From Limisphaerales bacterium (GTDB lineage Bacteria; Patescibacteriota; Microgenomatia; UBA1400; PJMF01): DNA of 47,889 nt. The stretch covers positions 1 to 47,889 of the forward strand of contig JBILGT010000006.1 of the NCBI GenBank assembly GCA_044350895.1, read 5' to 3'. Of this stretch, positions 7,714 through 17,785 are shown piece after piece. How positions within the stretch are numbered: the first letter of the stretch is position 1; each line of letters begins with the position of its first letter. The notes under the pieces were generated by a model, which had not been told where the DNA came from, did not search any database, and worked only from the letters and a program-made list of their open reading frames with translations. A program made the translations under genes and the position numbers.

Positions 7714-8295
7714 ATGCCGAGTGAAACAACCACATTAAGTTTGCCAGTCCCAGATACTGCCACGCAGGTTTTCAAAGGAATAACCTTTTCAGTCTATCAG
7801 TGGCCACAAGAGTTGTATGATGGCTCAACTGCCACATTTGAGCGCATCAAACGTCCTGATTCAGCGGGTGTAATTGCTATTTCTCCAGATCACAAAATTA
7901 TTTTGACATATCAAGAACAACCGCTGCATAAACCTTTTTGGGGATTATTGGGTGGTGTGGTTGATCCAGGTGAACAGCCACTGGAAAGTGCCAAGCGGGA
8001 ACTGAAAGAAGAAGGTGGATTTGCAGCTCCAGTCTGGAAAGAATGGTTTTCATTCAGACCATCAGTGCGGATTGAGTGGACAATTCACTTGTTTATCGCC
8101 CAACAAGTTACCAAAGTAATCGAGCCACATCCTGAACCAGGTGAGAAAATTACCATTCATGAACTGACATTTGAAGAATTTTTGGAAGTGGTACAGCGGC
8201 CAGATTTTCGCGACAGTGAAGTCGCACTCGAAGTGCTAAAAGCAATGGTAAATCAACAGAAAATGACAGAACTCAAACAGCTATTTTTTGGCTAA
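7714..8295 (+). CDS. NUDIX hydrolase (ADP-ribose pyrophosphatase-like)
   Basis: Nudix box GGVVDPGEQPLESAKRELKEEGG. Confidence 0.9.
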   Translation: MPSETTTLSLPVPDTATQVFKGITFSVYQWPQELYDGSTATFERIKRPDSAGVIAISPDHKIILTYQEQPLHKPFWGLLGGVVDPGEQPLESAKRELKEEGGFAAPVWKEWFSFRPSVRIEWTIHLFIAQQVTKVIEPHPEPGEKITIHELTFEEFLEVVQRPDFRDSEVALEVLKAMVNQQKMTELKQLFFG

Positions 8296-9237
8296 TGCAG
8301 CCAGTTGTTGTGTGATCTGATCTCTAATTTCCAAAATGTGAAACCCGATGAAGACAATGGAACTGCCAGTGGCCACGAATGCCTCTGGGGGAGCTTCAAA
8401 CGTATGGCGCGTACCAACTTTGTTAACGAGCTGATACCCATCAGCAAACTGCACAAATCCCTTAACTCGATAGACTGATCCAGGCAGTGACTGGAGAAAT
8501 TGCGCAAAAGCGGCTTTGTCGTAAGTGTCTCCAGTGGTGATATGAAAGGTGGTGATGCCGTCTTCTGCCAGGTGATCCTCGTGATGCTCGTGTTCGTGGG
8601 TGTCGCTTGAGCGTTCAATAGCCAGCAAACTTTCAAGTTCTGTCGAGGAAATGCCAAAAGCAACTGCTGTGTTGAGCTGGCCATGTGGTGCTTCCACGAC
8701 TGGTGAGTGATTATTCAACTCGCGCACATAGCCCACCACTGCTTCTTTGCGCTGATCATCTACGAGTTCCACTTTGTTAAAGACCAAGAGATCAGTGAAT
8801 TTCGTCTGGTTTTGGGCGGTATGACTCAAATCTTTGTATCCTTCAAAGTTGACCACATCAATGACGCTAATTACGCCATCACGCAGCATCTTGGGGTGTG
8901 AATCAATCATTAAGGCAATAGCAGCGGGGTCAGCGGCACCAGAAGCTTCAATGATGATGCGGTCTGGCTGGAAGGTAGTAATTACTTCATCAATGGCCTG
9001 GATAAACGGTCCCACCAACGTACAGCAGATACAGCCATTGAGTAGTTCTTTGGTTTTGATGTGTTTGCCTTGCATGATCTGGCCGTCTACATTTTCATCA
9101 CCAATTTCGTTTTTGATGTAAATAACTTGCTTTCCTTGATTTTGGAGTTGTTCAACAAGATGTGAAATGATGGTGGTTTTTCCAGATCCGAGGAATCCTG
9201 AGAAAACGGTGGTGGGTATGGCGGTACTGCTTGGCAT
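8281..9237 (-). CDS. COG0523/CobW-family GTPase metallochaperone (zinc)
   Basis: GFLGSGKTT, NEIG, GCICC, EASG, NKVE, His-rich HEHEHHEDH and YRVKG. Confidence 0.92.
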   Translation of the reverse strand: MPSSTAIPTTVFSGFLGSGKTTIISHLVEQLQNQGKQVIYIKNEIGDENVDGQIMQGKHIKTKELLNGCICCTLVGPFIQAIDEVITTFQPDRIIIEASGAADPAAIALMIDSHPKMLRDGVISVIDVVNFEGYKDLSHTAQNQTKFTDLLVFNKVELVDDQRKEAVVGYVRELNNHSPVVEAPHGQLNTAVAFGISSTELESLLAIERSSDTHEHEHHEDHLAEDGITTFHITTGDTYDKAAFAQFLQSLPGSVYRVKGFVQFADGYQLVNKVGTRHTFEAPPEAFVATGSSIVFIGFHILEIRDQITQQLAALAKK

Positions 9238-9310
9238 GTATGCGCCTCAGTGTACTAAAGGTGTGTGCATTAGAAAAGGGGCGGGAGAGAGTGTGGGCTG
9301 GATTTAGAAA

Positions 9311-9333
9311 ATATGAAGCAAATTGCTTCATAT
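9311..9333. promoter_or_regulatory. Perfect 11-1-11 palindrome; candidate Fur/Zur-family operator
   Basis: ATATGAAGCAA-A-TTGCTTCATAT, between the divergent COG0523 and exported hydrolase genes. Confidence 0.5.
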
Positions 9334-9494
9334 ACACATTCAATACGTTTGTGCATAATTCCCATATTATTATTGTTGAGGTGTATTTTTTGACGCTGCA
9401 TCAATACGATGTTGGGTACTCACTGAGTACTGGGCGGAAGATACTCTCAAGTTCTTTAACAACTTACTACTAGATTTAAAAAATACCTAAATAA

Positions 9495-9606
9495 ACAAGG
9501 GTGGAATTTTCGAGATACACGACATGTGTTGGGTTTGACGAGTTGCAGTGTCTCGAGTGTTCCACCCTTGTGCAAGTTTCTCATGGTGGAGCGGTGTTCG
9601 TTCTAT
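9495..9606 (+). other. Structured 5' leader: two G-U-rich hairpins (9495-9571 and 9586-9606)
   Basis: ACAAGGGTGGAATTTTCGAGATAC pairs with GTGTCTCGAGTGTTCCACCCTTGT; most deviations are G-U pairs on the + strand. Confidence 0.55.
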
Positions 9607-9683
9607 AGTCGTTTTTCTTTATCGAGTTCAGTTTTTTAACAGTTCGTTTTAACCCATTTTCAGATTCTTAGGAGGTTTTTTGT

Positions 9684-12600
9684 ATGAACACGTACCAGAA
9701 GTGGTACCGATGGATTGGGATTTTTCTTGTGGCGGCAGGGCTTTTGAGCCTGCTCGTCATCTTCATGCCTTTCGGTGTTGCCGAGGCAGAAGATCAAATC
9801 GTGAGCAACACAAGTGTGTTTCCTGGCAGTGTAGAGTTAGTGACCAAGAGCGCAGATGGGAATGGCGTGTACGCCTACCATGCTGCGCAAGGCATGGCTG
9901 AGGATGGAAGCTTTGTCTTCACATCTAAAGCCACCAATTTGGTCTCTCCACCTACTACGCCAGGGGAGGAGCGGTTTTACTTTTTTGATAACACCGCCAA
10001 GACAGTAACAGTTTTGCCGTCGTTTGGGACGGATAGTTTTTTGACCGCCCAGATCACGCCAGATAAGCAGTGGATTTTGTTGGGGTCATTTGACTACACG
10101 TTGCAGATCCACAAGGTCTCACTCTACAACACATTCACGGCGGAACTCATCGCAGTGAAAAAAGGCGATGGTAAACCCGTTTCCGTGAAGAATTCAAGCA
10201 TGACGGCGGATGGTAGCATTGTGGCGTTTACAAGCCTGGAACAGCTTTCAACTGCTGATACCAACGGCAAATTTGACGTCTATGTCTGGCACCGTGACAC
10301 AAAGGCAATTGAACTTGCCTCGAAGAAAGGCGATGGCACGGCAGCAGGAATCGAGACTTTTGCCTCAATCTCTGCAGATGGTACGTACGTGTCGTACATC
10401 GCAAGTGGGAGTAACTTCCCAGCTTGTGGTGCAACACGCTATGACGTCTACCGCCAAAATCTGCTGACGAGCGAAGTATTGTGCGTAAGTGGTGCTGTTG
10501 ATGACAGCGACTATGAAGTGTTCCGCTATGTCGAGATGTCCAGTGATGGGAGTAAATTCTACTTCCTGGGCATCATTGACGGAATCCAGCCCAAAATCAC
10601 CAATGTATACCTGGTGGATTTGGGCAGTGGAACGACAAGCGTCGTGTTCGACAAGACCGCATATGCTAGTGTCGCGTTTAATCGCCTCACCGCCGATGGC
10701 ACAAAAGTCGTTTATGCAAAGGTCGATGACAGGCGCCAATTGAACGAGGCATGCACATATGAAGTTGTCTCAGCGGAACATTCCTGCCTTAGCAAACCAG
10801 AAGACGCTCAACAAGGCAGCCTGATGTCAATTTCACCGACTGGCCGATACTCCGTAATTTGGAGTTGGGACCACAGCTGGATCGGCAGCATTGCCGACAA
10901 TCTCAAGCCCAATGGCGATCGGTCTGAAGACCTCTTCATCTGGGACCGTGAAGGCGTGAACAACGCCATCAGCGGCAAAGTGACGGGTGACGATGGAGTG
11001 ACAGGGCTGGCCGATGTGGTTTTGACCAACGGCAGCCGTGAGAAATACAAGACTGATGCGAACGGGCAGTATACGATGCCATACCTCACTGGTGGGCAGA
11101 CGTATGTGATTACGCCCACTGTGACGATCTCTGAGTTTTATCCCGCGAGCAAGCTGGTAACGGTTCCGACAGCCGGGAGTGTGGATTTTAGTACGAAGAA
11201 TCCTGTTCAATCGGTTGTGGTGTTCATTCCGGGAGTTGCCGGTAGCACACAGCTTTCTGAGAATAAAGTTGATCTATGGCCTGGCTTGTCAACCATTGCT
11301 GGCTTGTTGTTTGGTGATACTTACAAACGGCTGTCACTTGAAGGTGGGGTAGTTGAAAGTGGCGTTATTGCTGGCGATGCGATCAGGGTAGCCAGTCTGC
11401 CGTTTGGTTTTGAAAGCAAGCCAATTGTCAAGAATTTAGTTGACTCTACAATTGTCTACAAGCCATTTCTGGACTACATGGTAAATGAGTTAGGGTATCG
11501 AGAATACCATGTCAATAATGACCCTGACAAACGAGCATCTACTTGCAAAACCAATGAACAAACAAATCAACCCAACCTCTTCATCTTTGCATATGACTGG
11601 AGGCTAGATATCACGGATAATGTTGGCCTTCTGGGAGATTACATTGATTGTATTCATAATTTCTACCCAGGTATGAAGGTCACATTGATTGGACACAGCA
11701 TGGGCGGGTTATTGGCGCGCAAGTATATCGTCAGTGGTGGTGAAAGCAACGTAAAAACGCTCATTACCATCAATACCCCATGGCTGGGTGCACCAAAAGT
11801 GCTTCAGACCATGCTTGATGGTACTTGGCAATGGCCATATTCACGACCTATTTTGAAGCAATTAGTGAAGTACTTCCCAGGTGCCTATCAACTCATCCCA
11901 TCTGCTCGATACCTCACATCAGTAGCGCTACCTCCGTTCCGCGAAGGTGATTTTGACCTTGATAATGATGGTATTCTTGATGAATCCTATCAAAATATGA
12001 GTGATTTTGACGGATTCTTTCAAGCGCTTGGCTACACCACAGTGCCTTACAGTGTAAACTCTACTTTCTATGACAGCATGTTCCTTGATCCCACTGCTGG
12101 AAGTAGTGTTCAACATTTCTCTTTGATCACTCAACAGGAAGAGAATACGACAACTGGACAGATTTACAACGAAACTGAGGTAGTTTGCAACACAAGCGCT
12201 AGTGGAACTGCGTTCTCCTGTAACACCCTCTCGCTCTACATGGTGCATGCGGTAAAAGGAGACGGCACTGTCCCACTTGATAGTCTACAAGGACTGTTGA
12301 AGGCCAAGATTGGCACCACAACTCGCTTTGTGAGTCCAGGATCGGAATCGGATCATCGGTATGGACACAAGGAAGCCACCAGCAATCCCAATATTCTTGC
12401 TGCTATTAGCAGCATTTTGAGTGGAAACACCGAAGTGCAAGCAGCAACTGTAGAAACTGAAGGTGACCACATCAGCAGGTATGTTCGGTTACACGGGGTG
12501 GAAGCATTAACTATCACACATCCTATCTCGGGGAGCATCAGCAGCACAGACCACACTCTTGACTTCTTCAGCTTTCCCGGAGTGTCGGTTAACCAAGAAG

Positions 12601-13139
12601 GTGAAAGCGGGTATCTGATTACAATGGCACCTGATGCCACTTACGACATTACCTACAAGGCTAGCAAACCTGTATTCTTACAAACCAACAGCAGTGATGG
12701 AGGAAGCAATGTACGGGTTTCACAGAACTTCAACAATCAACCTCAAGCTCAAAACGGTGAGTTAACATTGCACATTTCTGGGAATCCAGAAACTTCGTTA
12801 ACTTATCAGACAAGCCAAGGGGTGGTCGAAGTGCAGCCTACAGGTAGTTACACAGCTACGTCGCCATTGGACAAAACTCCTCCAGTTGTTACTATCAGAC
12901 CGACAGCAAATGGCCAAGTCGAAGTTGTGGCAGAAGATGATAGTGCTTTGGGTGGTATTTATGTCTCAACAGGCGGTGCCTTGTACCATGCTTATTCGCA
13001 GCCATTAATGGTACCAAGTGGGACTATTGTTACTGCATTTGCAGATGATGTTGTTGGTAATCGCAGCAGCGTGGTTAGTTACACTGTTCAAGTAACTAAT
13101 TCCACTAAGAATGTCTATCTGCCCTTGGTTCAACGGTAA
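9684..13139 (+). CDS. Large exported multidomain protein: TolB-like beta-propeller + carboxypeptidase-regulatory-like Ig domain + LCAT/PGAP1-like alpha/beta lipase + Ig-like C-terminus
   Basis: N-terminal hydrophobic signal; S-x-D-G propeller repeats; ISGKVT..GLADV; IPGVAGS, YDWR, GHSMGG, TPWLGA, GDGTVP and His; ends VYLPLVQR. SD AGGAGGT. Confidence 0.85.
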   Translation: MNTYQKWYRWIGIFLVAAGLLSLLVIFMPFGVAEAEDQIVSNTSVFPGSVELVTKSADGNGVYAYHAAQGMAEDGSFVFTSKATNLVSPPTTPGEERFYFFDNTAKTVTVLPSFGTDSFLTAQITPDKQWILLGSFDYTLQIHKVSLYNTFTAELIAVKKGDGKPVSVKNSSMTADGSIVAFTSLEQLSTADTNGKFDVYVWHRDTKAIELASKKGDGTAAGIETFASISADGTYVSYIASGSNFPACGATRYDVYRQNLLTSEVLCVSGAVDDSDYEVFRYVEMSSDGSKFYFLGIIDGIQPKITNVYLVDLGSGTTSVVFDKTAYASVAFNRLTADGTKVVYAKVDDRRQLNEACTYEVVSAEHSCLSKPEDAQQGSLMSISPTGRYSVIWSWDHSWIGSIADNLKPNGDRSEDLFIWDREGVNNAISGKVTGDDGVTGLADVVLTNGSREKYKTDANGQYTMPYLTGGQTYVITPTVTISEFYPASKLVTVPTAGSVDFSTKNPVQSVVVFIPGVAGSTQLSENKVDLWPGLSTIAGLLFGDTYKRLSLEGGVVESGVIAGDAIRVASLPFGFESKPIVKNLVDSTIVYKPFLDYMVNELGYREYHVNNDPDKRASTCKTNEQTNQPNLFIFAYDWRLDITDNVGLLGDYIDCIHNFYPGMKVTLIGHSMGGLLARKYIVSGGESNVKTLITINTPWLGAPKVLQTMLDGTWQWPYSRPILKQLVKYFPGAYQLIPSARYLTSVALPPFREGDFDLDNDGILDESYQNMSDFDGFFQALGYTTVPYSVNSTFYDSMFLDPTAGSSVQHFSLITQQEENTTTGQIYNETEVVCNTSASGTAFSCNTLSLYMVHAVKGDGTVPLDSLQGLLKAKIGTTTRFVSPGSESDHRYGHKEATSNPNILAAISSILSGNTEVQAATVETEGDHISRYVRLHGVEALTITHPISGSISSTDHTLDFFSFPGVSVNQEGESGYLITMAPDATYDITYKASKPVFLQTNSSDGGSNVRVSQNFNNQPQAQNGELTLHISGNPETSLTYQTSQGVVEVQPTGSYTATSPLDKTPPVVTIRPTANGQVEVVAEDDSALGGIYVSTGGALYHAYSQPLMVPSGTIVTAFADDVVGNRSSVVSYTVQVTNSTKNVYLPLVQR

Positions 13140-13152
13140 TCTAGTATGTAAG

Positions 13153-13211
13153 ACAAAGTTTTTTTGATTGTTTGCCAAATTTTTGCGGTGAATAGATCAG
13201 AAATACTTTGT
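13153..13211 (+). other. Long G-U-rich 3'-UTR hairpin
   Basis: ACAAAGTTTTTTTGATTGTTTGCC pairs with GGTGAATAGATCAGAAATACTTTGT (about 23 pairs, 4 G-U, 1 bulge, 1 mismatch). Confidence 0.5.
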
Positions 13212-13217
13212 AGTTCT

Positions 13218-13256
13218 AAAAAGCAGTCACTTTTTCAAAAAAGGTGACTGCTTTTT
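13218..13256. terminator. Bidirectional intrinsic terminator
   Basis: AAAAAGCAGTCAC...GTGACTGCTTTTT between convergent genes. Confidence 0.8.
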
Positions 13257-14122
13257 TATTTCTTCACATGTATAAATGGGGTTGTAACTTTCTCATTGAC
13301 GAAATCTTTTGCTGTACAATTTGCTGATTTTATTCCAAAACTCTTGTATATAAAATATACAGTACCAGGTTGTAAATCGATTTTCTTATCATAGTCATAT
13401 ACTGGTATTTGATGTTGGAATACATTTGTTAGTACATAATCATATGTTTTTTTATCTTTGTTATTTTGTAATTCCGGAAAATGCAGAAATTCTAAGTTCT
13501 TGAGTAATGGACCCGTGTTACTTTTGCTACTATAAATCTTTTCATTTCTGGTAATAAGTGATTGAATGAACTCCTCATTACATTGTTCCTTTGGGGAAAA
13601 CTGGTAGCCATCACTAACAGATACAAACTCAAAGAGATATGGTAATTCAAGTGATTTAATTTTTTGTGTCACTTCAAATGGGACTAAAAAACTGATGTAT
13701 ACAATATCATTACTCTCTTCAATACGTTGTATTCCATCATGCAACACCACAGCATTTGCATGCTCTGCAGCACGTTGAGGAAGCTGTCTCTTTTGATATT
13801 CTTTATATTCCGATGGCCCAATTAAAAGGACAGCAAAAATTATTATTGATAACACAATGGTTATAAATACCTTGTACCAGCGTAGTCCCCAGACCTGTAC
13901 TCCCACAAAACCGTCTGCCACCCATAGCATCAAGCAAATTACACTAGCCATTGAGAATGGTACTGCTGGTCTCGGACTACTGAGAAATGGAATACCTATA
14001 CTACTGACAAATGCATACAACAAGTAACAACAAATTATCCAAGAAATCACGACTAATGCAGAATATTTTCCAATTGTTTTAAGTGGGGATTGAGCTTTTA
14101 TTTTATCTTGCTTCTTGGCCAT
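13256..14122 (-). CDS. Hypothetical membrane protein (3 TM helices plus a soluble C-terminal domain), AT-rich
   Basis: 288-aa ORF with three hydrophobic segments; upstream TTGACA-N18-CATAGT, 5 nt before the ATG. Confidence 0.75.
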   Translation of the reverse strand: MAKKQDKIKAQSPLKTIGKYSALVVISWIICCYLLYAFVSSIGIPFLSSPRPAVPFSMASVICLMLWVADGFVGVQVWGLRWYKVFITIVLSIIIFAVLLIGPSEYKEYQKRQLPQRAAEHANAVVLHDGIQRIEESNDIVYISFLVPFEVTQKIKSLELPYLFEFVSVSDGYQFSPKEQCNEEFIQSLITRNEKIYSSKSNTGPLLKNLEFLHFPELQNNKDKKTYDYVLTNVFQHQIPVYDYDKKIDLQPGTVYFIYKSFGIKSANCTAKDFVNEKVTTPFIHVKK

Positions 14123-14171
14123 ACTGTACTATGGAGTTTAGGCCACATTACTGTCAAGATGTATAAATAAA

Positions 14172-14201
14172 GTTAAGCATCCAAATTTGAAGGTACTTAA
14201 C
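14172..14201 (-). terminator. Probable intrinsic terminator after array member A
   Basis: Minus strand GTTAAGTACC...GATGCTTAAC followed by TTTATTT. Confidence 0.4.
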
Positions 14202-14218
14202 AAATACTTAATTAATAA

Positions 14219-14482
14219 TTACTTTTTCTTGGCTGGCTTTTTTTTATTTGAAAGTTTTTTGTAGACAAAAAATGTGGTGAGTGCTGTTGGAATAAATGGG
14301 ACGTACAATTGCAAATAATCCATATTTTTGCAAAATTTTGATGGTGTCGGGGGTGGATAACTTTTACCCACTAAAAAGCAATGAAAAACTTTATCATTAT
14401 GCAATAATATGAAAGAGAATATGAGAGCAAAAGCCCACCAAGAAAAGAAAGCAGTTAGTAACGTTAAAATAATTTTCTTCAT
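14219..14482 (-). CDS. Array member A: small 2-TM protein, C-x15-C loop, KKPAKKK tail
   Basis: 87 aa; paralog of 15822..16085. Confidence 0.8.
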   Translation of the reverse strand: MKKIILTLLTAFFSWWAFALIFSFILLHNDKVFHCFLVGKSYPPPTPSKFCKNMDYLQLYVPFIPTALTTFFVYKKLSNKKKPAKKK

Positions 14483-14595
14483 AGAATGACTATAGCATAT
14501 TTCAAGATTAGAACCTAGTAATTCAAGTTTACATTTGAAATAAATGTATTTAGTTGTTTTTAAACTAACCCTCTCCCTTAAAAAGGAGGTGGCTT

Positions 14596-14736
14596 TTACT
14601 TTTTTATGACATTTTGTCTTGGTGGAAGACTTCCTTCTAAAGCTTGTTGATTCATCACAAAATTCAGCAATATATAACTAATTAATGCAAAGACAAAAAC
14701 TACTATTATAATTGAAATTTTTTTATTAATTTTCAT
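14596..14736 (-). CDS. Array member B: 46-aa single-TM peptide
   Basis: MKINKKISIIIVVFVFALISYILLNFVMNQQALEGSLPPRQNVIKK*; TAGAGT 8 nt upstream of the ATG; below the ORF-track cutoff. Confidence 0.55.
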   Translation of the reverse strand: MKINKKISIIIVVFVFALISYILLNFVMNQQALEGSLPPRQNVIKK

Positions 14737-14817
14737 ATACTTTTACTCTACCGCATCAGAAAGAAAAATAAATTCTTTTACAAAATTACTTTTGTTCCAA
14801 CACATTCCTAAAACTAA

Positions 14818-15078
14818 TCACTTCTTCTTGGCTGGCTTTTTACTCTTTTTAAATCTAATTATCAACGCAATAACTGCTGCAGTAAGTGCAATAGAAATAA
14901 TAAAGTGTAAGTAGCCCAAGTTACGACAATTCTGAAGAAATGATTCACTCATAAGTTCTAAGGCACCTGTAGCAGCACATGCAAAATACGGCTTATAAAA
15001 CAACAGCGCGAAGAAAAGTGAAAAATCAAAAAAAATAAACGTAATTACTGAATACAATAATAGTTTTAAAATGTGCAT
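14818..15078 (-). CDS. Array member C: small 2-TM protein, C-x16-C loop, KKPAKKK tail
   Basis: 86 aa; CRNLGY motif and the same tail as A and F. Confidence 0.8.
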   Translation of the reverse strand: MHILKLLLYSVITFIFFDFSLFFALLFYKPYFACAATGALELMSESFLQNCRNLGYLHFIISIALTAAVIALIIRFKKSKKPAKKK

Positions 15079-15112
15079 AAAATCATTCTACCTACTATAG
15101 GTAATTAAAACT

Positions 15113-15406
15113 TTATTTCTTTTTATGTGGACTTTTTTTTAGAAAAATTGACATAAAGATTCCTGAACTCAGAAGAGTTGCTGTTAAATATGGAACAGCA
15201 GTTATTGTCTTGCAAAGTAGACCTTCAGTTTTTTCATTATTTACAACTCCATTTTGATCTATTACAGTTCCAAACGAACAATTTAATCCAGGTGCTTTAA
15301 GTAAAATGGGAAATAGTAAATAGACTGTAAATAATACAGAAAGTAAAAAACAAATAAACCACAGCACCACAAAAGTCGGAAGCGCTAATATAGTTTTTAC
15401 ACTCAT
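15113..15406 (-). CDS. Array member D: small 2-TM protein, C-x21-C loop, KKSPHKKK tail
   Basis: 97 aa with the same architecture. Confidence 0.75.
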   Translation of the reverse strand: MSVKTILALPTFVVLWFICFLLSVLFTVYLLFPILLKAPGLNCSFGTVIDQNGVVNNEKTEGLLCKTITAVPYLTATLLSSGIFMSIFLKKSPHKKK

Positions 15407-15425
15407 ATAAATTTACTATACCATA

Positions 15426-15774
15426 TTAAGATAAGACTGTATTTGTGACTATGTAAGCGTACTTTCTTTGAAGTAGGCTTTTTTTAGTTTTTTCCAATAT
15501 TGTTGTTTTTGTCTTAGCTGATCGACTTAAAAAATATGTTGTAATTGCAGCAAAAATCAATGGTAAAACCTTTTCAACTATATCCAGATTTCTGCAAAGA
15601 CTTTGAAGTTCTTGTGTCGTGTGGAGATTAAAAAAAACTTTCATCCTTACGGAAAAGGCAGTTCGATACATCTTTATTTAATAGATAACTAAAACTTATT
15701 ATTAAAAAGGAAAAAGTAAACGAAAGAATAAAGAAAATAACAAAGTTCCTAAAGCTAAAAGCAAAATTTTTCAT
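15426..15774 (-). pseudogene. Array member E: frameshifted 2-TM Cys-loop paralog
   Basis: ATG 15774 gives a 48-aa ORF (...LLNKDVSNCLFRKDESFF*) that stops at the A8 run 15630-15637; the next frame continues NLHTTQELQSLCRNLDIVEKVLPLIFAAITTYFL. Confidence 0.7.
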
Positions 15775-15821
15775 ACGCTTACATTATTAGATATCAGCAA
15801 AAAATAAATAATAGTACAAAG

Positions 15822-16085
15822 CTACTTCTTCTTTGCTGGCTTTTTTTTATTTGAAAGTTTTTTGTATACGAAGTATGAAACTAATGAGCTAGGAATGAGC
15901 GGTCCAAATAGTAAAGAGTATCCAAGAATGTTACAAAACTTTGACATAGGTGTTGGAGGATATACTATTACTCTTGAAAAACAAGTTAAAACATCCTGAT
16001 TTAGCATTGAAACCAAAAAGAATATAACGGTAAAAACCCACCAAGAAAAGAAAGCTGTTAGCAACGTTACAAGAATTTTCTTCAT
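15822..16085 (-). CDS. Array member F: small 2-TM protein, C-x15-C loop, KKPAKKK tail
   Basis: 87 aa; 50/87 identical to member A without gaps. Confidence 0.8.
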   Translation of the reverse strand: MKKILVTLLTAFFSWWVFTVIFFLVSMLNQDVLTCFSRVIVYPPTPMSKFCNILGYSLLFGPLIPSSLVSYFVYKKLSNKKKPAKKK

Positions 16086-16112
16086 TGAATAACTATATAT
16101 CTTCCCACCTGC

Positions 16113-16871
16113 CTACTTCAACTCCAGCCGTGCAAACCGATTGCGCGTAAAACTATCTGTAAAGACATCCACTGCATACATATCAAAAAACTCACTAAAA
16201 TCTTGTGCAGTATGCGTATAGTCCACTTCCAGCAACACAATGCCATGTGGTTGCAATAGAGTTGCAGCTTGATGCAAAAACTTACCAATGAGTGTCAATC
16301 CTTCAGGTCCACCATCCAGCGCAATGAATGGCTCATGATCTTTGACTGATTCATCGAGGACGGCAATACGTGCGGTGGGAATATACGGAAGATTGCTCAC
16401 CAGAATATCAAACTTCACGTCTTTTGGAAAACTATCCAGCAAATCGCTGGTAAGAAATTTGACCTGAGGTTCTGCATCTCCCAGCAAGTTTTTGGCATTC
16501 TCGCGAGCCACACTCATAATATCTTCAGTAACATCAGAAGCATACATACGCACATTTTTATTATGCAGGTGTTTGGCGAGTGTGATGGCAATTGCTCCAG
16601 CCCCAGTCCCAATGTCACCAATCACGAGCGGTCGTTCATCTGAAATAAGCTGGAGCTTTTCAGTGGCTGCCTGCAGTGCCAAATCTACCAGTTCTTCTGT
16701 TTCAAGGCGGGGGATAAGTACCCGTTTATCAACATGGAACTGGAGCCCACAAAACTCAGCCACTTCAGTCACATATTCCACAGGCTGTGTGCCAATGTCA
16801 GCATCTGTATATGGTCCACTCTTGCCATGACGTGCAAGCTGCGTTTGTTCATACGGGGAAAGTTGTCTCAT
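16113..16871 (-). CDS. prmC: Release factor glutamine methyltransferase (HemK/PrmC)
   Basis: QPVEYV..EFCGL, VLIPRLETEELV, DIGTGAGAIA, SNLPY and ALDGG. Start placed at ATG 16871 (TATAAT 9 nt upstream). Confidence 0.88.
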   Translation of the reverse strand: MRQLSPYEQTQLARHGKSGPYTDADIGTQPVEYVTEVAEFCGLQFHVDKRVLIPRLETEELVDLALQAATEKLQLISDERPLVIGDIGTGAGAIAITLAKHLHNKNVRMYASDVTEDIMSVARENAKNLLGDAEPQVKFLTSDLLDSFPKDVKFDILVSNLPYIPTARIAVLDESVKDHEPFIALDGGPEGLTLIGKFLHQAATLLQPHGIVLLEVDYTHTAQDFSEFFDMYAVDVFTDSFTRNRFARLELK

Positions 16872-17002
16872 ATGCAGCAAATTATACTGTGAATTAGACA
16901 CTAAACTGATGGTAAATTTCTGCTTGCCAAGATGGACACTTTGCGTATACACTGTGACCCACAGTAAATTGCTCTTCACTCAATTTATATTAGAAAGGCT
17001 CT

Positions 17003-17785
17003 ATGAAGCAGGAATCTCCGTATTCGTACAACGCGTTTGTTGAATTTATTCAGGCAAACTTTGCGCTACTTGTTGTTGCCGCACTCTTTTTTGCCGGTGG
17101 TTTTTTCTTTGGTTCACTTTGGACTGAAAACAATCTTCGCAAAAATGGCGGTGTCGCCGCAGTCGCTGGTGCTCCAACAGCCGCAGCTCCTGATGCTGCC
17201 GCAGCAGGTCCAACAGGTCCTACTCCAGAACAGCTGAAGACCATGCCTGAGCTCACTAATAAAGATCATGCAATTGGTGCAAAAAATCCAACTATTACAC
17301 TGGTTGAGTATTCTGACTTTGAGTGTCCATTCTGTTCTCGTTTTCATCCTACTACCAAACAAGTTTTGGAAGAGTATGGTGACAAAGTACAGCTCGTCTA
17401 TCGACACTATCCATTACCATTCCATCCTAATGCTCAAAAAGCTGCTGAAGCTTCAGAGTGTGTGGCCAAACTGGGTGGCAATGATGCATTCTGGAAGTAT
17501 GCTGATGCAATATTTGCAAAGCAGACTGAACTTGGTGGTCAACTGAATCCAGCTGCCATTACTGATGCAGCTGCCGCAGCAGGTGTGAATGCCGCTAGTT
17601 TCAAAACCTGTCTTGACAGTGGTGAGATGGCCGCAGCCGTCAAAGAAGACATGGACGGTGGAGCCGCAGCAGGAATTAACGGTACTCCAGGCACAATGAT
17701 CGTTACAGACGATGGTGTCCAGGAACTCATTCCAGGCGCTTATCCATACGAGCAAGTGAAGACTATGATTGATAAATATCTCTAA
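17003..17785 (+). CDS. DsbA-family thioredoxin-fold protein, membrane anchored
   Basis: EYSDFECPFC, YRHYPL, GINGTPG; N-terminal TM. Confidence 0.9.
   Translation: MKQESPYSYNAFVEFIQANFALLVVAALFFAGGFFFGSLWTENNLRKNGGVAAVAGAPTAAAPDAAAAGPTGPTPEQLKTMPELTNKDHAIGAKNPTITLVEYSDFECPFCSRFHPTTKQVLEEYGDKVQLVYRHYPLPFHPNAQKAAEASECVAKLGGNDAFWKYADAIFAKQTELGGQLNPAAITDAAAAAGVNAASFKTCLDSGEMAAAVKEDMDGGAAAGINGTPGTMIVTDDGVQELIPGAYPYEQVKTMIDKYL

Follow-up and report, generated by a model that had tools for sequence, protein, structure and literature searches.

The window analyzed here comprises positions 1-47,889 of contig JBILGT010000006.1 (47,889 nucleotides (nt), assembly GCA_044350895.1, forward strand), and its minus strand carries an AT-rich tandem array of short membrane-protein genes at positions 14219-16085, directly downstream of and convergent to the gene for a large secreted protein. 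The core members of this array are paralogues that share an invariant pair of cysteines and evolve under purifying selection, and the large protein beside them combines an N-terminal half common to its paralogues with a C-terminal domain that has been exchanged at a fixed junction. We propose, with a probability of only about 35%, that this is a polymorphic effector locus whose small membrane proteins serve in self-protection (immunity-like), their genes being arranged in the manner known for immunity to pore-forming colicins. Toxin immunity was one of several options offered by a first-pass annotation made from the sequence alone, and it is the option toward which the genomic context points.

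The minus strand carries six co-oriented short open reading frames (ORFs), A to F, between prmC (16113-16979) and a gene for a 288-amino acid (aa) membrane protein (13256-14122), confirming the AT-rich 1.9-kb block first described, with a GC content in the 14-16 kb region of 0.28-0.30 compared to 0.41 genome-wide. Gene A (14219-14482, 87 aa) encodes a first transmembrane segment (TM1), a loop bounded by C-x15-C, a weak second segment (TM2) and the tail KKPAKKK; gene F (15822-16085, 87 aa) is an A-type paralogue with the same cysteine spacing and tail and 57% aa identity to A. Gene C (14818-15078, 86 aa) encodes two transmembrane segments, a C-x16-C loop and again KKPAKKK, and gene D (15113-15406, 97 aa), with C-x21-C and the tail KKSPHKKK, has the architecture of A and C without detectable sequence similarity to them. 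The residues at the second cysteine read CKNMDY in A, CRNLGY in C, CKTITA in D and CNILGY in F. Gene E (15426-15774) is a broken member with a decayed tail, its two frames (15628-15774 and 15426-15671) becoming one only when the T8 run at 15630-15637 is shortened by a base to T7; contigs of two other lake-water sequencing runs (X2 and X3) span this site and show no difference. The cysteine spacings and tails originally listed for A, C, D and F hold as given, while the x20 spacing listed for E depends on the T7 reading. ORF B (14596-14736, 46 aa) encodes a single transmembrane segment without cysteines and is not a detectable member of the family.

We defined the family by two cysteines around a 15-21-residue loop between two hydrophobic segments, together with a C-terminal KK.P..KK-type tail, and this combination is present in the array. 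A hidden Markov model (HMM) of the family gave six matches at E 1e-21 to 1e-36 among the 27,737 six-frame segments of the genome (G000), the next match having an E-value of 0.012. Two of the six, A' and C', form a second mini-array on contig C27, where ORF B has no counterpart between them. A candidate on contig C20 (3703-3951, E 0.012) lacks a start codon and the first cysteine and was judged spurious. Within the family, similarity is strong among A, F and A' and between C and C' (81% nt identity), and C is 37% identical in aa sequence to a distant metagenome relative, P0010. Models of the A-type and C-type match each other reciprocally but weakly (E 0.005-0.007), ranking third to fourth of all segments and being the best non-self matches. 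A/F and C are real paralogues.

The remaining genes are less securely placed. The second half of E is matched weakly by subset models (E 0.009-0.2) and its other half at E 0.4-1, and ORF B shows no detectable similarity to the family (HMM E 2.8-13). Gene D was not found at E ≤ 50 in the six-frame segments by any model built without it, its alignment to the others by hhalign has a probability of 1.3%, and BLASTP gave no match between them. A C-terminal motif, KK.?P.[KRQ][KS][KR]$, occurs in 6 of 12,973 six-frame segments, which are exactly the six intact members including D, although this motif was derived post hoc; the kinship of D to the rest consists of plan, array position and this motif only. 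The single plan ascribed at first to five of the genes is therefore a shared architecture, with homology that is strong within the A- and C-types, weak between them and for E, and undetected for D. In an alignment of nine sequences, the only invariant columns are the start methionine and the two cysteines, so that the cysteine pair is conserved in every homologue found (9/9); the tail of P0010 is basic but of a different type.

Comparison of the paralogues by the Nei-Gojobori method over whole genes gave proportions of nonsynonymous and synonymous differences (pN/pS) of 0.19/0.63 for A and A', 0.24/0.61 for A and F, 0.26/0.65 for A' and F and 0.13/0.36 for C and C'. As pN is well below pS in all four pairs, these genes are under purifying selection. 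Loop hypervariability, which had given the array its first interpretation, is seen only between subtypes and not within them. Identity between the loops of C and C' (0.75) does not differ from that of the remaining sequence, F and its ortholog-like relative P0004 are 78% identical with changes spread throughout, and in the distant P0010 the loop is the best-conserved stretch. Among A-type proteins loop identity is 0.29-0.54, with TM2 equally low in the pairs A/F (0.44) and A'/F (0.39).

The large secreted protein (1151 aa, plus strand, 9684-13139) begins with a signal-like segment, and its N-terminal half, which is conserved, contains a weak PD40 match and a CarboxypepD_reg domain. After approximately residue 505 follows a swappable LCAT/PGAP1-type lipase domain with the sequence GHSMGG (Pfam LCAT, E 1e-12), and the C-terminus reads VYLPLVQR. 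The genome holds only two paralogues of this protein, each of which abuts an array; both arrays, and only those, lie directly downstream of and convergent to them. Four large paralogues from two species, two of them from the congener G004, have a common N-terminal half and diverge right after the sequence '...VDF[ST]T[KH]'. The lipase domain is present in the window protein and in a G004 protein (contig C35), the paralogue on C27 carries a C92-like permuted papain domain, whose His and Cys are kept by all of four relatives, and a third C-terminal type without family assignment is present in G004 (contig C42). The N-terminal halves cluster by genome (in windows of 50 columns the G004 pair is 0.69-1.00 identical), and the lipase domains cluster according to type, with 0.64-0.90 identity between species compared to 0.38-0.78 for the N-terminal halves of the same proteins. 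In addition, metagenome relatives of the C92-like domain (P0012-P0014) are attached to other N-terminal architectures, including one with LamG and a short form.

Each C-terminal type is accompanied by its own convergent genes. The lipase type is followed by the 288-aa protein or a 284-aa protein in both cases (2/2) at two different chromosomal sites, the C92-like type by A' and C', and the third type by a 101-aa ORF with three transmembrane segments and a 55-aa ORF; the count of co-variation extends to the four loci known, and the window array itself stands beside a lipase domain. By blastn the window locus is a composite: 9314-11154 matches C27, and 10828-13369 together with 13731-14133 match the lipase C-terminal domain and 284-aa gene of G004. 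Genes A and C match A' and C' in unchanged order, and B, D, E and F are extra. As an observation on the large gene itself, its N-terminal half (9684-11198) has a GC content at third codon positions (GC3) of 0.58 compared to a median of 0.336 for ORFs of at least 250 aa, a deviation in the opposite direction to that of the array.

The C92-like domain was found in none of 285 other genomes of the order, and none of 107 candidates on GTDB contigs or 203 on JGI contigs was confirmed. A PDB sequence search with this domain gave no match at E ≤ 1, and its AF2 model, with a predicted local distance difference test score (pLDDT) of 48.5, was too poor for a fold search. Folding the domain (205 residues) together with A' gave a score of 0.00 in both runs, which were made without controls, and this result weighs neither way on binding.

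The whole system sits in a 6.9-kb insertion (9238-16112) that holds the 1151-aa gene, a hairpin, the 288-aa gene and the array. On its left flank is a COG0523-type GTPase gene (8281-9237, minus strand) with 67% identity to the G004 gene located directly after prmC, and on its right flank is prmC itself (minus strand, release-factor glutamine methyltransferase, TIGR03534, E 6e-57), which lies outside the system. The prmC gene directly adjoins the GTPase gene in 4/4 congeners with an intact contig (G001-G004), which are distant relatives with prmC only 46-51% identical. The second array is not near prmC. The neighborhood of prmC and a DsbA-like gene, mentioned in the first-pass annotation, is incidental: DsbA-prmC is conserved synteny in congeners, with no specific link to the array. 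The hairpin (13218-13256), with an 18-bp stem, lies between the convergent transcription units and resembles a bidirectional terminator.

The 288-aa protein (minus strand) has three hydrophobic segments and a C-terminal domain of about 180 aa and is 51% identical to the 284-aa protein whose gene lies, likewise convergent, behind the lipase paralogue of G004. A distant relative of it (E 1e-10) occurs in another genome (L037, 6643-7470, G018:C22) beside rplJ/rplL and a 395-aa ORF, with no large secreted protein nearby. The 288-aa gene has a promoter-like TTGACA-N18-CATAGT with its end 5 nt upstream of the ATG, and this element is conserved at the G004 284-aa gene. TATAGT/CATAGT boxes precede the start codons of F, D, C, A and A' and of the 288/284-aa genes by 5-15 nt; in the window these boxes, all on the minus strand, are at 14128-14133 (288-aa gene), 14489-14494 (A, 6 nt before the ATG), 15094-15099 (C), 15415-15420 (D) and 16092-16097 (F), the last forming part of TTGAAG-N18-TATAGT at 16121-16092. 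Of the 23 TATAGT sites on both strands of the window, 6 are on the minus strand of this 3.1-kb stretch. Their positions suggest separate promoters for the individual genes, possibly giving leaderless mRNAs.

Codon-position analysis gives A, C and F a GC content at first and second positions (GC12) of 0.31-0.33 and a GC3 of 0.31-0.32, equal to the genome median of 0.336. Because GC3 is normal, the low GC of these three genes is attributable to amino-acid composition (GC12), and a foreign origin on compositional grounds was rejected for them. Only B and D have an atypical GC3 (0.16-0.17). Further AT-rich islands are present elsewhere in the genome, on C32 (~17-29 kb), C16 (0.5-4.5 kb), C10 (18-19.5 kb) and C20 (1.5-5.5 kb), and 36 of 2419 1-kb windows of the genome have a GC content below 0.32.

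The A/F pair is a mosaic, with a synonymous difference of approximately 0.3 at the 5' end and in the tail compared to 0.7-1.0 in the loop and TM2; nt identity in the tail is 0.95, and a 55-nt repeat at the 3' end is 89% identical. This pattern fits recombination or conversion at the gene ends. One 512-nt contig of another run (X4) joins position 14231, at the 3' end of A, to 15835, at the 3' end of F, omitting 1603 nt, which equals the A/F repeat spacing. As the joint falls across 32 shared letters and the assembly word size was presumably 31 letters, it may be either a real deletion variant or an assembly artefact. The remaining joints in contigs of other runs stem from the paralogous C27 locus.

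Hydropathy supports two helices in C, C', D, P0004 and P0010, and the second segment scores under the Kyte-Doolittle cut-off of 1.6 in A, F, A' and P0006. The AF2 model of A is a helical hairpin with a pLDDT of only 68. These two results qualify the two-segment plan first given for the A-type genes. The charge pattern fits the positive-inside arrangement noted in the first-pass annotation: the N-terminus carries 1-2 Lys/Arg, the C-terminus 5-8 Lys/Arg and no acidic residue, and the loop is roughly neutral, indicating a likely topology with both ends in the cytoplasm. A membrane-anchored DsbA-like protein with a thioredoxin fold (17003-17785, plus strand, Thioredoxin_4, E 1.3e-24) is indeed encoded nearby, its adjacency being incidental as described above, and a VKOR homologue is encoded elsewhere in the genome. 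Since such proteins are available and the charges would put both ends inside, an outer loop closed by a disulfide is plausible.

Database searches agree with the early impression that no named family is involved. No curated family in Pfam, NCBIfam, PHROGs or PADLOC matched the array proteins above its cut-off; A and F had no Pfam match with E below 0.1, and the best scores for C and D were far below the cut-offs (DUF2231, 16 vs 26.4 bits; MYPE2350, 15 vs 50 bits). Foldseek with the A model returned nothing from the PDB at E ≤ 0.001, and in the ESM Atlas all scores were ≤ 0.83, at chance level. A word-indexed search of 5.8 billion proteins gave seven matches, five from this genome plus P0004 and P0006. 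An exhaustive profile search of 1.84 billion representatives gave seven at E ≤ 0.001, including four members and one new sequence (P0010); two long repeat proteins from that search are regarded as spurious. Six-frame searches of 60 relatives, among them five congeners with none, yielded no credible member, and three weak matches there (E 3e-4 to 0.01) were discarded, two being interrupted by stops and the third falling within a 354-aa frame. A scan of 400 further genomes of the class gave no member either. In the same way, 0 of 586 pattern matches on JGI metagenome contigs and 0 of 543 on viral contigs were confirmed for the family, and neither phage records searched with A nor plasmid records searched with C gave a match. 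Among the data searched, the family is confined to one species and three metagenome variants (P0004, P0006 and P0010). Literature listings, abstracts and passages of PMC12419801 contain no description of this family or locus type.

The motif at the end of the large protein is shared more widely. The pattern [FY]LP[LIV][LIV]x[RK] ends seven large ORFs of this genome, one in the window (13119-13139) and the others on C2, C14, C27, C35 (two proteins) and C36. It occurs 10 times in six-frame segments of at least 80 aa, 7 of these being at the very C-terminus compared to 0.05 expected, and it also ends homologues in G004, G005 and P0012-P0014. This C-terminal motif probably represents a signal, so far undescribed, by which secreted proteins are sorted or processed. 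The C36 protein (G000:C36:3763-7185, minus strand, 1140 aa) ends in FLPLVQR and is followed by AT-rich DNA (GC 0.31-0.37) with ORFs of 181 and 292 aa; by paralogue search it is not a paralogue of the large protein of the window. Beside the lipase-type large protein of G005 (L024, 4753-8478, G005:C43) are a prepilin-peptidase-like gene and several pilin-like genes with GFTLIELLV-type N-termini.

The genome of this lake bacterium (1.27 Mb, 97% complete) gave no match for Omp85, LpxC or ribosomal protein L30, and a sortase is present. Genomes of the genus measure 1.0-1.2 Mb. Loss of L30 is a mark of the candidate phyla radiation (CPR) group, and the gene content fits a monoderm-like ultra-small bacterium of the CPR kind.

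In the arrangement that we propose, A, C, F, the broken E and probably D would be tiny inner-membrane hairpins with both termini in the cytoplasm, a short disulfide-closed outer loop and a Lys-rich tail on the inner face of the membrane. Their genes would make up the variable cassette that follows the gene of a polymorphic, effector-like secreted protein. The large protein keeps its N-terminal half and swaps its C-terminal enzyme domain (lipase, C92-like amidase or the third type) at the fixed junction, each version being followed by its own opposite-strand membrane-protein gene or genes. A separate promoter would drive each small gene regardless of the enzyme gene, and the product would shield the membrane or wall interface of the producer from such enzymes. 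A' and C' would be the set belonging to the C92-like enzyme, and the window array would be an accumulated or orphaned set, left behind when the cassette of lipase domain and 288-aa gene recombined in.

Self-protection is favored because the C-terminal domains and adjacent small genes appear to move as cassettes with displacement of the resident genes, and because the convergent layout and separate boxes recall the colicins. Passages of PMC4436062 define polymorphic effectors by just such cassettes, which displace resident genes, and place the immunity genes of pore-forming colicins on the opposite strand, with several immunity genes in some colicin loci. The likeness to colicin immunity genes of the cai/cia type as those passages present them (PMC4436062) lies in small inner-membrane proteins encoded on the opposite strand right after the large gene, with several per locus in some cases, and here with promoter-like boxes of their own. 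With CdiA, Rhs and MafB types the locus shares a constant N-terminal part with C-termini exchangeable at a fixed junction, the occurrence of the same C-terminus on several architectures, small genes clustered downstream, and the displacement of resident genes by incoming cassettes. It differs from them in that the large proteins have no type V, VI or VII trafficking domain, only a signal-like N-terminus and the C-terminal [FY]LPLVxR. Immunity proteins of pore-forming colicins have three to four helices and block the pore-forming domain inside the membrane, whereas the array proteins have two predicted helices, a conserved and putatively outer cysteine pair and a Lys tail, and the neighboring domains are enzymes. 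The array locus is, furthermore, chromosomal, in a monoderm-like ultra-small bacterium, and its products are without similarity to any Pfam family.

Several observations weigh against self-protection. The small genes do adjoin a protein with a constant N-terminal part and variable C-terminal domains (four paralogues, two species), whose toxin nature is putative, but classical polymorphic-toxin immunity genes, according to passages of PMC4436062, are co-directional and immediately downstream. The array genes are instead convergent to the large gene, with the hairpin between them, an arrangement known only from pore-forming colicins. CdiA, Rhs and MafB loci usually have co-directional immunity genes and orphan C-terminal fragments as well, and no such fragments were seen at the array locus. 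Cognate pairing is indirect, because the large array adjoins a lipase domain and not the C92-like one, and the C92 assignment itself (25.1 vs 27 bits) is below the Pfam cut-off. Co-variation is counted over four loci in two related genomes, which are not independent, the lipase-type homologue in G005 has no such downstream gene, and the distant 288-aa relative in G018 has no large gene. D is without detectable homology to the other members, a loop of 15-21 residues would be small for an enzyme inhibitor, and the enzymes of the large proteins, only putatively toxic, could serve in feeding or in attack on a host. A more ambitious version, in which this is a colicin-style polymorphic effector system and the Cys-loop hairpins are a new immunity family forming a recombining repertoire, partly switched off at the T8 run, that sets which neighbors' enzymes are survivable, appears rather unlikely to us.

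A possible though doubtful explanation is that these are lineage-private small membrane proteins that serve some other purpose, housekeeping or structural, without a functional tie to the large genes, and whose genes merely occupy a site prone to recombination and tolerant of insertions. The family is tiny and species-restricted, and its linkage to the large genes comes from two loci of one genome that share a segmental duplication comprising the upstream DNA, the N-terminal half, A and C; the co-location of array and large gene could consequently be inherited rather than selected, and the 288-aa relative that occurs without a large gene agrees with this. Against it stand the findings that distinct C-terminal types go with distinct convergent membrane-protein genes at 4/4 loci, that the pair of lipase domain and 288-aa gene recurs at two different chromosomal sites, and that the paralogues are maintained by purifying selection. 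That the ORFs are no genes at all but chance frames in an AT-rich spacer, where low GC favors long Lys/Phe/Ile-rich ORFs and where B and D have an atypical GC3, is very improbable: it is largely refuted for A, C and F, though B may be such a frame, as pN is well below pS in all pairs, frame, cysteine pair and tail are kept in paralogues and in relatives from other samples, and the HMM matches at E 1e-21 to 1e-36 stand against ≥ 0.01 elsewhere in the genome.

The exposed loops were at first thought to be a variable surface repertoire, and a recombining, possibly phase-variable set of disulfide loops acting in host recognition, or as phage-receptor decoys or exclusion factors, would explain the A/F mosaic, the X4 contig if it is an A/F recombinant (14231 to 15835), the switching off of E at the T8 run and the strong loop differences between subtypes. 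The resemblance to Vlp-like systems of Mycoplasma and pilS/Opa-like systems of Neisseria extends to tandem paralogues with alike ends, a divergent center and a homopolymer run inactivating one copy. The proteins of such repertoires, be they lipoproteins, pilins or outer-membrane proteins, expose large parts that are subject to diversifying selection. Here, pN is below pS in every computable region, TM2 diverges in A/F to the extent that the loop does, loops are conserved in C/C' and C/P0010, the X4 joint with its 32 shared letters may be an artefact, the T8 run does not vary in the X2 and X3 contigs, and the exposed part would be merely 15-21 residues next to the membrane, under the wall of a monoderm-like cell, making it a poor adhesin; we regard this explanation as quite improbable. 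A similarly low probability is given to holin-like or otherwise membrane-active proteins that permeabilize the membrane, either releasing the large enzymes or acting as toxic peptides. Class II holins are proteins of about 70-100 aa with two helices, both termini inside and a basic C-terminal tail, a description that 86-97 aa, two predicted helices (A-type TM2 being below the cut-off), the same predicted topology and a strongly basic tail match, and a neighbor carries a papain-like amidase-type domain. There is, however, no PHROG or Pfam holin match, no phage gene or lysis cassette nearby and no match in the phage and viral collections, the large proteins carry signal-like N-termini of their own, and the conserved extracytoplasmic cysteine pair and multi-copy arrays of tandem paralogues are, to our knowledge, not holin traits. 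Improbable, too, is a role as accessory partners that anchor, mature or retain the large proteins without protecting the cell: strict adjacency to both large paralogues speaks for this role, and the conserved C-terminal motif may need a partner, but the five other proteins of the genome with that motif have no such neighbors, the G004 and G005 homologues occur without the family, and convergent transcription from separate putative promoters would speak against co-regulated assembly.

If the self-protection reading is correct, this locus would show effector and self-protection cassettes at work in a 1.27-Mb genome, in a group whose means of attacking other cells while sparing their own are little known, its hairpins would represent a new and very small membrane immunity family, and the convergent, own-promoter layout of the pore-forming colicins would be in use beyond enterobacterial plasmids. 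As the family is narrow, the general value of the finding would lie mainly in the logic of the locus and in the putative [FY]LPLVxR signal.

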